Virus record (IMG/VR): IMGVR_UViG_2509276065_000002
Location: 1 to 64,000 of that record
Origin: a virus
Taxonomy: Duplodnaviria; Caudoviricetes
Direction: 5' to 3' (one strand)
Length of the DNA stretch: 64,000 bases
Both the position numbers and the translations under genes were made by a program. Below, piece by piece: positions 29,561 to 33,770 of the stretch. The first letter of the stretch is position 1; each line of letters opens with the position of its first letter. The notes beneath the pieces are model-generated. The model was not told the origin of the DNA and searched no databases. It worked only from the letters and a program-made list of their open reading frames with translations.

Positions 29561-29793
29561 GCCAGACTCCCGAACAGGCTCGGCTGGCGCCAGCTGGTCG
29601 CCATGGTGACCGCCCGTGGCTTTGGGGTGATCAGCTCCACTACCTCGTCGTAGGTGAGGGTCGTCACGACCCGTCCAGCGGCTTCGTGCACGGACCGGAA
29701 GGTCTCACGGACTCCTGGCAGGTCCGCCGAGCAGCCGAACCACTTGCCTGCCGCGTCCCGCGACACCAGAAAGTGCGTCGCGGCCTGAGTCAC
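29557..29793 (-). CDS. Hypothetical early protein
   Basis: GTGA-coupled at both ends. Confidence 0.55.
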   Translation of the reverse strand: MTQAATHFLVSRDAAGKWFGCSADLPGVRETFRSVHEAAGRVVTTLTYDEVVELITPKPRAVTMATSWRQPSLFGSLA

Positions 29794-30509
29794 GAGCGGC
29801 CCCCATTCCCGGCCACCAAGGCCTGCGCGTGGCGTTTCTGCAGCTCGCTGATGTCGAGCTTGCCCAGCACGTCGCGCCGGTACGCGTCGCGCGCCAGGCC
29901 TTTCTTGCCGAGCGCGTCGAGGAGCTGCTCGGTGAGTTCGTCTCGGTTTCCCTCGACGTCGGCCGTGCCCTGCAGGTCCTGCCACTGGGCGCCTTCCTCG
30001 ACGTGGTTCAGGTGGGGCACAGGCCGGGCCGATGGGATCGACGGCGGCTCAACCGGTGGGGCTTTCTGGGAGGCCCTGCCGGGCAGGGCGAAGCGCTCGT
30101 CACGGCGGCCACCTCGGAACACTGCGAGGGCCACATAGCCGATGTCCCCTTCACCGGTCTCGACCAGGTGCGGCGGGTCAGTGGGCTTGGCCCCACGCGA
30201 GTACTTCACCGCCGCGGGCAGGCGCATCTTCCGGGTATCGACCGCAGCAAGTTCCCGGCGCTTCCAGACGTGCCCACGGCACCACACGCAGGCGTCGCCG
30301 TCATCGCTCGTGAACTTACGCCCGCCCAGCAGCGCCCAGTGGAAGTCGCTTTCGTTCTCCAGTGGCAGCTGGAAGCCACCGGCAGGGATCTCTCCGGAGT
30401 GATAGCCCTGCGCGCCCCACTGGGCGAGCGCGCGGAACTGACCGCCCTCTTCGAACGCCACGGTGATCTGCTCACCGAGCGGGCCGGTGAGGTGCAGTTG
30501 GCCACTCAC
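29790..30509 (-). CDS. ddrB: DdrB-family ssDNA binding/annealing protein with C-terminal extension
   Basis: SGEIPAGGFQLPLENESDFHWALLG, RRELAAVDTRKMRLPAAVKYSRGAK, YVALAVFRGG match Deinococcus DdrB as I remember it. Confidence 0.92.
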   Translation of the reverse strand: MSGQLHLTGPLGEQITVAFEEGGQFRALAQWGAQGYHSGEIPAGGFQLPLENESDFHWALLGGRKFTSDDGDACVWCRGHVWKRRELAAVDTRKMRLPAAVKYSRGAKPTDPPHLVETGEGDIGYVALAVFRGGRRDERFALPGRASQKAPPVEPPSIPSARPVPHLNHVEEGAQWQDLQGTADVEGNRDELTEQLLDALGKKGLARDAYRRDVLGKLDISELQKRHAQALVAGNGGRS

Positions 30510-30685
30510 GCGCTCACGCTCTCTTTCGGTGCCGGAAGTGGCGTGGTCTGGATGGCGAGTGCCAGGCGACCAAGGACGGCGTACAGATCGCCGCGCAGGT
30601 CGGTCAGTTCCGCTTCCTTGTGGCGGATCTGGGCCAGCAGATGGCGCAGGTCCCTCAGGTCTTGCTCCGGGGTGGGGTCACTCAT
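30506..30685 (-). CDS. Small coiled-coil protein
   Basis: Coupled ORF. Confidence 0.5.
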   Translation of the reverse strand: MSDPTPEQDLRDLRHLLAQIRHKEAELTDLRGDLYAVLGRLALAIQTTPLPAPKESVSA

Positions 30686-30902
30686 GCGCCACGTCCCGGA
30701 GTCGGAACTCACGGCGCTCGACGACACGGCGGCCCGTGCGGACGGTGATGCTGCCGATGCCGCGCTCAGCAAGCCAACGCGCGTTTGGTGAGGGGCGTTC
30801 GTGCAGCACACCACGCTCGAACAGCACCCGATGCGCGTGGTCGTGGTCAATGGTGCAGCCCCGGCTCTCGGGGGTCATGATGATGGTCTGGCGCTTGATC
30901 AC
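30678..30902 (-). CDS. Hypothetical early protein
   Basis: Coupled ORF. Confidence 0.5.
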   Translation of the reverse strand: MIKRQTIIMTPESRGCTIDHDHAHRVLFERGVLHERPSPNARWLAERGIGSITVRTGRRVVERREFRLRDVAHE

Positions 30903-31078
30903 GAGCGCGCTCCTTTCCAGGCGATGGCCTGTGAGAGGGCCTTGCCGCCCACAATGGCGAGGGCGGTGTACAGGGCGGCGTCGACGAGTAGGTGGGGATT
31001 ATGGGGTGCGGCGAGGCCCGCGGCCATCGCTTTGATGGCCGCAGCCACGACGATCAGGGCCAGCAGGAAGCGGCCCAT
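30899..31078 (-). CDS. Small 2-TM membrane protein
   Basis: Hydrophobic; TGATG coupling. Confidence 0.55.
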   Translation of the reverse strand: MGRFLLALIVVAAAIKAMAAGLAAPHNPHLLVDAALYTALAIVGGKALSQAIAWKGARS

Positions 31079-31296
31079 CAACGGCGCCGCTCCAGGCAGT
31101 CGGGGCAGATCACGAAGCTCGCCTTGCCGCAGTCGCAGCACCGCGGGCCGTACAGTTCGGCCAGCAGGGCGCGCACCAGGCGGTCGAGACGCATCTCCAG
31201 CAGGGTTTCGTCGTCGAGCCAGAATTCAGCGGTGTGATACGCAGAAAGGGGCGCATCGTCGAAGGCGTCGTGTTCGTGGTGCTGGAGTGCGGTCAT
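31078..31296 (-). CDS. Small Zn-finger protein
   Basis: CCDCG...ICPDC. Confidence 0.6.
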   Translation of the reverse strand: MTALQHHEHDAFDDAPLSAYHTAEFWLDDETLLEMRLDRLVRALLAELYGPRCCDCGKASFVICPDCLERRR

Positions 31297-31828: not shown

Positions 31829-32200
31829 TCAGCGACGCCCCAGTGGCGCCGCTGCCTTCACGCCTCGCGGGGCGCTTTGGGCAGGGGTAAAAACGACGCG
31901 TGGAGCGTCACCGCTCAGCGGCTCATCGCCCGCTTCGAGCCATCGGTCCACGGCACGTTTGGAAATCACGACCCGGCCCGCAATACGCCGAACCGGGAAT
32001 GGAGGGGGCGTCTGGTTGCACAGCGCGTAGGCAGCGTTCTTCCCGACGCGCAGGTAGGCAGCGAGTTCGGGCACCGTAAAGACGGTGTCGTTCTGCAGAT
32101 CGCTTTGTGTGGCGGGCAGGGCGAGACGTTCAAGGTGCCGCTCGACGACGCGAGCGACTGCGGTCTGCACCTGTTCAGCGATCAGTTCGTCCAGGCTCAC
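31829..32200 (-). CDS. Excisionase-like HTH protein
   Basis: VFTVPELAAYLRVGKNAAY...FP.RRI...VISK.AVDRWL. Confidence 0.85.
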   Translation of the reverse strand: MSLDELIAEQVQTAVARVVERHLERLALPATQSDLQNDTVFTVPELAAYLRVGKNAAYALCNQTPPPFPVRRIAGRVVISKRAVDRWLEAGDEPLSGDAPRVVFTPAQSAPRGVKAAAPLGRR

Positions 32201-32457
32201 GCAGGCACCCGTGCCAATTCGTCATTGTTGGTTACGGAGGTCAATAAGTCAGCTGCAGCAATATTTAAGGCAGCAGCGATCTTGTCCAATTGAGCAAGTG
32301 TAGGAACTTGCTTGCCGTTCTCTAGAACACTGACCTCACCTTTTCGGCGCGGATCGCCCCAGACACGCTCAGCAAGCTCCTCCTGGTTGAGATTCGCTGC
32401 CTGACGATAGCGCCGAATATTCTGTCCAACGACGTTATTTTCGATCAGCTGAGGCAT
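32197..32457 (-). CDS. Cro-like XRE regulator (leaderless)
   Basis: VGQNIRRYRQAANLNQEELA...LENGKQVPTL; divergent from the repressor. Confidence 0.88.
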   Translation of the reverse strand: MPQLIENNVVGQNIRRYRQAANLNQEELAERVWGDPRRKGEVSVLENGKQVPTLAQLDKIAAALNIAAADLLTSVTNNDELARVPA

Positions 32458-32571
32458 GATCGAATTATGGACCTCCGTAACCAATTTGTAAAGGCCCTCC
32501 CACATAAGCATTCTCTTATGGGAAACCATAACTTATGGTGTCTCGTAACTGGAGGTTATGGGACACGCTAA
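32232..32571. promoter_or_regulatory. Five 16-bp operators, consensus TTATGG-N4-CCRTAA
   Basis: Sites at 32232 (reverse), 32465, 32516, 32533, 32556. Confidence 0.8.
32464..32492 (-). promoter_or_regulatory. Lytic promoter for cro
   Basis: TTTACA-N17-CATAAT, six nt before ATG 32457. Confidence 0.7.
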
Positions 32572-33121
32572 CCACGCCTCCATCCACCAACCGCTTCTGA
32601 TGGGGGTCCTCGCTCGCATGGCAATTAAAGAGAAACCACAGTGGCTGTCCTCTACTGAAGCAGGAGCATTTATCCAGCGCCGCCGCGAGGAGATAGGGCT
32701 AACGCAGGAGCAGATGGTCGAGCGGACCGGTATCAAGAATGTCACTTACCTCAGCAGTCTTGAGAATGGTCGCCACCATATCGGTCGCAGTGAGTACTTC
32801 GGGATCGTTGCCGAAGTACTGCGTCTGACTGAGGACGAAATGCTGATGCTCAAGCCGAATTTGATTCGTGCGCCGGGCGGCGTCAATGCTTTGAAGGGCT
32901 ACAAACATCAAGGAGAGCTTGCAGATCAGCTTCTCCTCGACGACTTGCCACCCGGTCTCGAAGAAGCAATTCGGAAGTACGGCGAGGACTACCCACCGCT
33001 GCGTGACCCCAAGATCCAGCAGCAGCTCGCACTTGCCCGTTTCTACACCGGTCGTGGTCCCCAGAGTGCCAGCCAATGGCTCGCCTACTACCTCTCCATT
33101 GCCAGTTGGATCGGCACCTAA
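32558..33121 (+). CDS. XRE repressor with DdrO-like C-terminal domain
   Basis: HTH (RREEIGLTQEQM...YLSSLENGR); C-terminal LPPGL...L.LARFYTGRGPQSASQW..YYLSI..WIG; true start may be 32618. Confidence 0.85.
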   Translation: MGHANHASIHQPLLMGVLARMAIKEKPQWLSSTEAGAFIQRRREEIGLTQEQMVERTGIKNVTYLSSLENGRHHIGRSEYFGIVAEVLRLTEDEMLMLKPNLIRAPGGVNALKGYKHQGELADQLLLDDLPPGLEEAIRKYGEDYPPLRDPKIQQQLALARFYTGRGPQSASQWLAYYLSIASWIGT

Positions 33122-33128
33122 GGCCCCC

Positions 33129-33770
33129 GTGGACGACCTGCCAGCTTCCTACGTCGCGTATGTCGAGAAACTTCACGCCCTCCACGACTACGAACTGAAC
33201 TTCCGGCTGCTCAGCGAATCCCTTGGTGTCCGGATCAAACCCGGACTGGAAAACAGCTTTGTCCCTGGTCCCACGCCCACCATCGTGCTCGAGCCTCACC
33301 TCTACGGCTGGTCCCACTCGCGCGTCGGACTGCACGAACTCGGTCACCTGTTCATCCGCTGGAGTGGCATCGAAGCGCAGCTCCTGAGCGAATGCAGCGA
33401 CAAAAACTACGCCCTGCAAGCCATGGAGAATCTCGCGCACCTCACCGTGGCCGTCCTTCAGATTCCAACACCGCTCCTCGAGGAGGCCCTGCAACGTCAC
33501 GGCGACTCGCCGGCCGCCATTCTCTACATGGCCAAGCGTAGTGGCGCATCCCTTGGCTCGGCCCTCCGGCGCTGGGTGTTCCAGGATGCCCGTGAGCCCC
33601 GCTTCGCTTTCTCAACCGCCGGCAGCTACATCCTCGACACAGCCGCGTTCGGCACATTGATACCGATCTACCGGGGCGCCAGGATTCCCGAGCCTGCGAT
33701 CGAGTTTCCCGAAATCAGCCTGCGCACCTTCAAGCCTGGGCGCAGTGTCGGTGTTTTCGTTGGCAGGTAA
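33129..33770 (+). CDS. IrrE/ImmA-family Zn metalloprotease
   Basis: HELGH plus downstream E (AMENLAH); IrrE-like HTH segment LQRHGDSPAAILYMAKRSGASLGSAL. Confidence 0.9.
   Translation: MDDLPASYVAYVEKLHALHDYELNFRLLSESLGVRIKPGLENSFVPGPTPTIVLEPHLYGWSHSRVGLHELGHLFIRWSGIEAQLLSECSDKNYALQAMENLAHLTVAVLQIPTPLLEEALQRHGDSPAAILYMAKRSGASLGSALRRWVFQDAREPRFAFSTAGSYILDTAAFGTLIPIYRGARIPEPAIEFPEISLRTFKPGRSVGVFVGR

Follow-up and report, generated by a model that had tools for sequence, protein, structure and literature searches.

A DdrO/IrrE-like repressor-protease pair and a DdrB gene in the immunity and early region of a Deinococcaceae prophage

IrrE (PprI) and DdrO form the master switch of extreme radiation resistance. 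Whether a prophage can carry a parallel switch of its own, with the repair gene ddrB among the genes that it controls, is the question raised by the immunity region of the virus record IMGVR_UViG_2509276065_000002. The stretch of DNA analysed here (the window) comprises positions 1 to 64,000 of that record and corresponds to G000:C1:1452027-1516026 of a 4.5-Mb genome, that is, to a part of the chromosome of a member of the Deinococcaceae, the family of Deinococcus radiodurans. [quoted passage not shown] The segment is the lysis-lysogeny switch and the first part of the early operon of a siphovirus-like prophage of about 39.9 kb, hereafter prophage A. That it belongs to a prophage, as had been proposed, was borne out by phage structural and replication genes, an integrase and a repeated 3′ core of tRNA-Arg. 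The repressor and the protease probably constitute an immunity switch that controls an early operon including a DdrB annealing protein, with stress-triggered cleavage of the repressor inducing the prophage.

Relationship of the repressor to DdrO and of the protease to IrrE

The two genes at the centre of the switch are the following.

32618..33121, plus strand: DdrO-like immunity repressor of 167 amino acids (aa), with an XRE helix-turn-helix (HTH), a flexible linker and a C-terminal domain (profiles, AlphaFold2 model)
33129..33770, plus strand: IrrE-like M78 zinc metalloprotease (HELGH) of 213 aa, a compact form of the full IrrE architecture (profiles, AlphaFold2 model)

The repressor ORF spans 32558-33121 on the plus strand, and the ATG at 32618 is its likely start, which fits the N-termini of homologs and the recorded form P0059. 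The protease ORF opens at 32919; its likely start is the GTG at 33129, 8 nt past the repressor stop, and public homologs are 212-217 aa long. Structures of IrrE/DdrO are 3dte, 8slm/8sln, 6jq1, 6rnx and 6ro6.

The C-terminus of the repressor had been regarded as DdrO-like, and a C-terminus unlike the DdrO dimerisation domain had been named as the finding that would speak against this. When tested, the C-terminal domain did match that of DdrO, and profile, PDB-profile and structure-model comparisons all pointed to DdrO. The homology of this domain was detectable only with family profiles: as a single sequence, the repressor gave similarity in the HTH alone in BLASTP against the host DdrO and in phmmer against PDB, with no DdrO among the PDB matches. 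The profile of the 23-member repressor family was aligned with the DdrO profile over the full length by hhalign (98.5%, E 2.9e-15), and the C-terminal domains alone were aligned over 51 columns (94%, E 1.3e-7). Searched against all PDB sequences, the family profile found three DdrO entries as its best matches, with the isolated DdrO C-terminal domain (6ro6) at E 0.0088. An AlphaFold2 model built without templates (predicted local distance difference test, pLDDT, 87) had DdrO chains as its top five Foldseek matches, and residues 109-166 of this predicted model matched 6ro6 with Z 7.5 and a root-mean-square deviation (rmsd) of 1.9 Å over 53 of 55 residues. The N-terminal domain matched Pfam HTH_31 and HTH_3 and, in the VIA comparison, the DdrO N-terminal domain 6rnz (Z 7.5, rmsd 2.6 Å over 66 residues); the recognition helix reads VTYLSSLENGR in the phage repressor and VPYLSDLERGR in DdrO. 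The repressor is homologous to DdrO over both domains, beyond the common HTH.

The repressor is nevertheless not an ortholog of DdrO, as its identity in the profile alignment is 26%, whereas an ortholog would be expected to have at least about 85% within the family and a single conserved chromosomal locus. The true DdrO of the host is encoded at G000:C1:1128516-1128902. A second, full-length DdrO-like gene of the host shows 39% identity to DdrO and is intermediate in sequence between DdrO and the phage-type repressors. It adjoins an M78 protease gene and two integrases (locus L124, G000:C1:1630743-1636614; genes at C1:1633243-1634231, integrases at 1634755-1635915 and 1638460-1639536).

The protease, noted earlier for its HEXXH motif, proved to be IrrE-like over its whole length in profile, Foldseek and VIA comparisons. 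As a single sequence it already had IrrE as its best PDB matches, and the protease-family profile matched IrrE (3dte) at E 4e-16 and 4e-15, with the next match at 2e-5. Residues H69, E70, H73 and E100 are invariant in a 26-member alignment, and the spacing of 27 residues from H to E is that of H86-E113 in IrrE, the zinc/active-site residues of which are H82/E83/H86/E113 (PMC12828697). The four top Foldseek matches of the AlphaFold2 model (pLDDT 95.9) were IrrE/PprI (E 3e-10, template modelling score 0.62-0.64), followed by CapP and a Mycobacterium regulator. In VIA, 207 of the 213 residues of the predicted model were aligned with residues 11-263 of IrrE 3dti (Z 16.8), over all three IrrE domains (peptidase, helical and GAF-like), including the region of the GAF-like domain. 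The phage protease is not an ortholog of IrrE either: identity is 18-29%, the protein falls short of IrrE by about 70 residues, and the host encodes an IrrE of its own. Chromosomal IrrE orthologs match it weakly (residues 69-148, E ~1e-4), whereas about 50 of 125 family genomes together contain about 60 full-length relatives (28-39% identity), so that the phage-type pairs form a distinct mobile clade, apart from chromosomal IrrE. The host carries four mobile pairs besides its canonical IrrE/DdrO.

With IrrE/DdrO, the phage pair has in common the two-domain plan of the repressor, including the homologous C-terminal dimerisation/cleavage domain, the active site and whole-length alignment of the protease, and a ddrB gene downstream. 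It differs in that the two genes are adjacent to each other and lie in a prophage, in the cleavage loop of the repressor (see below), and in that the system would control a phage early operon, not a chromosomal regulon. The layout is of the ImmR/ImmA type, with the repressor and protease genes adjacent on one strand, near the integrase and divergent from the genes presumed to be under their control. An XRE repressor and a COG2856 protease likewise stand side by side next to an integrase in ImmR/ImmA of ICEBs1, Rir/Crh of TP-J34 and MpaR of Listeria, and in switches of the ImmR/ImmA type stress-triggered inactivation of the repressor induces the element, as would also apply to prophage A. However, ImmA (169 aa) and Rir (122 aa) consist of the peptidase domain only, without a GAF-like domain (PMC12828697), whereas the phage protease keeps the full IrrE-like architecture; nor is ImmR closest in the C-terminal domain of the repressor, where DdrO outranks all other solved XRE proteins. 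CapH/CapP is another COG2856/XRE pair, and CapP (7t5t), which is stimulated by single-stranded DNA (ssDNA), matched the protease model (Foldseek E 2e-5, VIA Z 11.1). This structural match is weaker than that to IrrE, and CapH/CapP controls CBASS and other defence operons, not a prophage switch.

Operators and the early operon carrying ddrB

The control region and the early genes up to ddrB contain the following features.

32556..32571, no strand: operator O4 (dyad search)
32533..32548, no strand: operator O3 (dyad search)
32516..32531, no strand: operator O2 (TTATGGGAAACCATAA), a perfect dyad (dyad search)
32465..32480, no strand: operator O1 (TTATGGACCTCCGTAA) (dyad search)
32232..32247, no strand: operator O5, in the end of cro, close upstream of the xis-like gene (dyad search)
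32464..32492, minus strand: predicted early promoter TTTACA-17-CATAAT with its −10 inside O1 (10/12 matches; 2 sites found against 0.2 expected)
32197..32457, minus strand: cro-like XRE gene, the first of the early operon, divergent from the repressor (Pfam HTH_3; L051 homolog of 88 aa)
31829..32200, minus strand: HTH_17 excisionase/regulator-like early gene, here called xis-like (Pfam HTH_17, E 9e-9; phrog_66, excisionase and transcriptional regulator)
30506..30850, minus strand: small early ORF directly before ddrB (ORF list, sequence; no family match)
29790..30509, minus strand: phage DdrB paralog of 239 aa with its core in residues 1-145 (Pfam PF12747, E 7.2e-43)

The five related palindromes of the preliminary description were recovered as TTATGG-N4-CCATAA dyads at 32232, 32465, 32516, 32533 and 32556. 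Each matches this pattern with at most two mismatches, and the 64-kb window holds no further such match; with at most one mismatch, the 4.5-Mb genome holds two sites in the switch and one elsewhere. The clustering of the dyads is far beyond chance, and the operators are private to the prophage. Their likeness to the RDRM stood in part: the outer bases of the half-sites are those of the RDRM, but the dyads are 16 bp long (6+4+6), with a spacer of 4 nt, and are not the RDRM itself, which is 17 bp long (6+5+6, with a spacer of 5 nt), e.g. TTATGTTATTTACGTAA (PMC1978522). Phage operators and the RDRM are both TT...AA dyads with the half-site TTATG in common, in keeping with the near identity of the recognition helices in the phage repressor and in DdrO. 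Searched with the 17-bp consensus TTMYGY-N5-RCRKAA, the 64-kb window contained no RDRM with zero mismatches and three sites with one mismatch (2192, 35713 and 36388), none of them in the switch or near ddrB.

The 4-nt operator spacer appears to be a trait of the whole repressor family. In the 300 bp upstream of 23 family repressors, there were 14 TTnnnn-N4-nnnnAA dyads, against 0, 2 and 2 with spacers of 3, 5 and 6 nt, respectively, while about 1.4 such upstream dyads are expected from the window-wide background rate. The inner bases of the half-sites vary together with the recognition helix across the family repressors, and an unrelated viral contig (L132) has TTGCAA-N4-TTGCAA sites of the same geometry in its switch. 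Elsewhere in the host chromosome, a gene for an XRE-type repressor of 229 aa has a perfect RDRM (TTATGTCATCAACATAA, at G000:C1:2509484) 86 nt upstream.

O2-O4 fill the divergent control region. The −10 of the predicted early promoter ends 6 nt ahead of the cro ATG (32457), and the cro transcript is probably leaderless, an arrangement common in the phylum of the host (PMC12340547). A second promoter-like site (32288-32260, minus strand) lies inside the end of cro, with O5 just past it. Extended O5 (32228-32247) is an inverted copy of extended O1 (32465-32484), identical at 19/20 positions.

That a DdrB homolog is encoded in the early operon was confirmed by comparisons with Pfam, PDB and the host DdrB and by gene order. 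The phage protein scored 146 bits against PF12747 (curated cut-off, 25 bits) and covered 129 of the 132 profile positions; it matched DdrB 4exw in PDB at E 1.3e-47 and showed 61% identity over 145 aa to the host chromosomal DdrB. It retains all 21 columns that are invariant in a 30-member DdrB alignment including it, the KYSRGAKPTDP motif among them. Its tail of about 90 aa ends in a helical domain that replaces the acidic ...(E/D)xPF tip of chromosomal DdrB. This domain is common to L051, P0002 and P0003, and other long DdrB forms carry other tails.

Phage ddrB shares its strand with cro and lies 1.95 kb 3′ of the predicted early promoter; no terminator-like site was found in between. Further small ORFs occupy the minus strand between the xis-like gene and ddrB and between ddrB and the replication-initiator gene. 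The GTG start of ddrB overlaps the TGA stop of the preceding ORF (30506..30850) as GTGA, which indicates translational coupling, and no promoter-like site of its own was found. No RDRM was found near phage ddrB, even with one mismatch allowed; an RDRM lies within 150 bp upstream of 29 of 30 chromosomal ddrB genes, but of none of 20 extra copies (see below) and not of the phage copy. Phage ddrB belongs to the early genes of the phage and not to the host radiation/desiccation response (RDR) regulon. In a second prophage of the same chromosome (prophage B), an ERF annealase gene lies 0.85 kb 3′ of the homologous xis-like gene, the position held by DdrB in prophage A, where no SSB, RecT or ERF gene was found. 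In its place between the switch and the replication genes, phage DdrB is like the phage annealases (ERF, Redβ/RecT, Rad52-like Sak), although it belongs to a different fold family (PF12747). Host DdrB is an ssDNA-binding and annealing protein (PMC4627823).

A tblastn search found no match to DdrB in 50,697 deposited phage genomes, and a single-sequence scan of IMG/VR likewise gave none; the alignment-based scan of IMG/VR found DdrB in six viral contigs. Neither PHROGs nor NCBIfam contains a DdrB family, and full-text literature searches brought up no paper describing DdrB in a phage. Phage P1 has a protein called 'DdrB', but it is unrelated. Extra DdrB copies occur in about 30 of 121 family genomes (L038-L057), mostly on small contigs or replicons without the repressor-protease switch. 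Many of the extra copies end in ...AAD, not in the acidic ...PF tip, and there are several distinct types of C-terminal tail among the long forms. The host chromosomal DdrB (L001:1495-1974; G000:C1:2334902-2335381) is short (160 aa), with a basic ...PVRRR end where nearly all other chromosomal DdrB proteins have the acidic PF tip; its RDRM is intact.

Proposed mechanism and alternative explanations

In a lysogen, repressor dimers would shut off the early operon, possibly by looping between O1 and the near-identical, inverted O5. DNA damage or oxidative stress would activate the phage protease in the manner of IrrE, for which zinc release or ssDNA is the signal (PMC7907104, PMC12828697). The activated protease would cut the repressor in the C-terminal loop (RFYTGRGP in the phage repressor, RF-RGGGP in relatives) that is aligned with the DdrO cleavage site, Leu106-Arg107 (PMC12828697). 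Cleavage would part the DNA-binding domain from the dimerisation domain and de-repress the early operon. DdrB would then be made as the single-strand-binding and annealing protein of the phage for replication and recombination, and its C-terminal helical domain may stand in for an SSB-like acidic tail as a partner-docking module. By analogy with the host system, we infer that radiation or desiccation may be the inducing stress. The layout of the switch also predicts RecA-independent prophage induction in Deinococcus.

Several points weigh against this sequence of events. The loop RFYTGRGP differs from the strictly conserved ELRGKRP of DdrO and has one extra residue, so that the scissile bond is only predicted. 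The protease as a single sequence scored 14.8 bits (E 0.025) against Pfam PF06114, below the 22-bit cut-off; because the family profile matches IrrE at E 4e-16, we read this score as reflecting divergence that leaves the membership in M78 standing. No plus-strand promoter for the repressor was predicted. Among nine further early ORFs, no nuclease or other recombination partner was found with Pfam and PHROGs, and the presumed role of DdrB as a phage annealase is taken from its position and from the known biochemistry of host DdrB. Furthermore, the distant homologs ImmA and Rir showed no stimulation by ssDNA (PMC12828697), and the case of Rir and Crh shows that a COG2856 protein need not cleave in order to act (PMC6868357).

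This last case, from Streptococcus phage TP-J34 (PMC6868357), is the precedent for the view that the protease is a non-proteolytic antirepressor, which would bind the repressor C-terminal domain and block dimerisation without cutting. We consider this very unlikely, as 26/26 aligned family members have HExxH and Glu as the third zinc ligand, in the spacing of IrrE, whereas the extended motif in Rir was reported not to be fully conserved (PMC6868357). It is also unlikely, if less so, that the host IrrE cleaves the phage repressor and the prophage thereby eavesdrops on the host radiation response. The phage protease would then act elsewhere, e.g. on competing phages or on host DdrO, and in the latter case host repair genes would be turned on during lytic growth. 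The host does have canonical IrrE and DdrO, the C-terminal domain of the repressor is a homolog of the DdrO domain that IrrE has as its substrate, and orphan pairs with an upstream RDRM in four other genomes point to cross-wiring with the host regulon elsewhere. However, the phage cleavage loop is unlike that of DdrO, the cassette is tightly linked in 23/25 loci, the C-terminal domain seems to vary in step with the protease of its own pair, and the four mobile pairs in one host argue for private specificities.

Another explanation concerns ddrB alone, which would be lysogenic-conversion cargo (a moron) raising the radiation or desiccation tolerance of the host, and not a replication/recombination gene. 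DdrB is a host repair protein of which extra copies are common on small replicons, and the host chromosomal DdrB lacks the usual acidic PF tail; yet phage ddrB lies inside the early lytic operon, translationally coupled and with neither a promoter-like site nor an RDRM of its own, in the position equal to that of ERF in prophage B, and its product is a fast-evolving long branch with a different C-terminal domain. We regard the cargo explanation as quite improbable. The idea that the pair is a toxin-antitoxin-like or abortive-infection module together with the adjacent Abi_alpha gene, and not an immunity switch, is hardly credible. COG2856/XRE pairs were first classed with mobile stress-response and toxin-antitoxin-like systems (PMC2701414), Abi_alpha is indeed the next gene, and orphan pairs occur outside prophages, e.g. 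in G035. Against this, the pair has the integrase to one side and a divergent cro-like gene to the other, and there are five operators over early promoters, the classic layout of an immunity region, and no other CI-type repressor was found in the lysogeny module with Pfam and PHROGs. All four alternatives are less well supported than an immunity switch that is opened by cleavage of the repressor.

Recurrence, origin and chromosomal setting

The repressor gene lies directly upstream of the protease gene in 23 of 25 Deinococcaceae loci; in prophage A, this two-gene cassette stands between the integrase and the divergent cro-like gene. Some loci conserve the repressor in its C-terminal domain only, which fits co-evolution with the protease. 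In another genus, a syntenic prophage (G001, L051) keeps the order of the integrase, protease, repressor, cro, xis, DdrB and initiator genes. The viral contig L132 repeats the layout of repressor, protease and divergent DdrB without nucleotide similarity to the window or to L051, and in other DdrB-encoding viral contigs DdrB lies near an integrase or a DdrO-like gene. The combination of the repressor-protease pair with DdrB occurs in at least two phage genomes besides prophage A. G035 was rejected as a further phage instance: its ddrB, 7.4 kb from the pair, has its RDRM, and the pair is an orphan among housekeeping genes.

That orphan pair (L083, in G035) belongs to a subfamily with the recognition helix SANYLSYLETGK, together with the pairs L077 (G098), L078 (G106) and L082 (G086). 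In all four, a 17-bp RDRM, perfect or with one mismatch, lies 79-92 bp upstream of the repressor start (e.g. L083:15859-15875), and L077, L082 and L083 have an extra 16-bp TTCATA-N4 dyad further upstream. The host RDR regulon may include these four pairs.

That phage COG2856/XRE pairs are akin to IrrE/DdrO has already been published (PMC6868357, PMC8072749, PMC7907104). What appears to be new is a close mobile clade with the full architecture, its operators shorter by one base and DdrB as its early-operon gene. The mobile relatives of IrrE/DdrO described so far, ImmA and Rir, are distant and peptidase-only; the Deinococcaceae mobile clade keeps the DdrO C-terminal domain and the whole IrrE architecture, and the DdrB operon is found in at least three phage genomes. 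Such mobile pairs are natural intermediates with which the basis of the IrrE response to zinc or ssDNA can be studied, and from which it can be learnt how parallel circuits within a single cell are kept apart by repressor-protease specificity and operator spacing. DdrB, treated so far as a Deinococcus-specific repair protein, is now seen as a phage early gene in the position of an annealase, which adds to the known phage recombination proteins and offers a way to approach the origin of DdrB.

In the DdrB tree, the phage copy lies on a long branch (1.55) and joins the chromosomal DdrB of the host lineage weakly (support 91/67), and the phage copies do not come together as one clade. The tree gives no support to a phage origin of the chromosomal gene; capture from a host fits it somewhat better, but nothing is decided by it. 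A wider proposal, which we consider speculative and rather unlikely, is that the chromosomal DdrO/IrrE/RDRM/ddrB system and the Deinococcaceae phage immunity and early module are branches of one ancestral cassette. The chromosomal system would then be a domesticated prophage switch that retained the phage annealase DdrB among its first targets, and the 16- and 17-bp operators would be one-base spacer variants insulating the circuits.

The remaining features of prophage A in and around the switch are as follows.

35903..35927, minus strand: att core at the right junction of prophage A, the 25-nt 3′ part of tRNA-Arg(CCT) (repeat search)
34527..35885, plus strand: tyrosine integrase (Pfam Phage_integrase, E 8e-22; 70% identity to the L051 integrase, 54% to that of prophage B)
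33809..34624, plus strand: Abi_alpha (abortive-infection-like) gene of the lysogeny module (Pfam PF14337, E 4e-54)
27599..28720, minus strand: O-like replication-initiator gene, 3′ of ddrB in the same operon (phrog_8540, E 2.6e-9)

Beyond the early genes, profile searches identified terminase, portal, major head and tape measure genes on the minus strand, as well as the O-like initiator. Copies of the tRNA-Arg(CCT) core identical to that at the right junction lie at window positions −4009 and 114138, giving three in total (G000:C1:1448017, 1487929 and 1566164), of which solely the last (114138) is in an intact tRNA-Arg(CCT). ARAGORN and Rfam found no intact tRNA or RNA family in the 64-kb window; the piece at 35.9 kb is a 3′ fragment. 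As all three cores are on one chromosome contig and only the last is in an intact tRNA, an excised (attP) form was rejected, and the segment with DdrB and the switch therefore lies in the 39.9-kb prophage A, in tandem with prophage B at tRNA-Arg(CCT). Prophage B extends from about 35.9 to 114.1 kb in window coordinates; its integrase is 54% identical to that of prophage A, and no M78 match was found in it. Homologs of the xis-like gene are present in prophage B and L051.

Some minor observations concern the flanks of the region. A third XRE-family HTH gene (26529-26891; HTH_31, E 4e-10) is in the early operon of prophage A, 3′ of the replication initiator. Inside the O-like initiator gene, three TT...AA dyads with a spacer of 4 nt, at 28238, 28259 and 28308 (region 28238-28323), may be origin iterons. 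At the left end of prophage B, the RDRM-like site with one mismatch at 36388-36404 lies about 30 nt into the first of two small coupled ORFs (36359-36706 and 36709-36984). In the host, a perfect RDRM lies just beyond the tRNA-Arg attachment site (G000:C1:1566307); thus, the phage attachment site adjoins a gene of the host RDR regulon. A perfect RDRM occupies the same relative place past the integrase in G001 (L051:18291).

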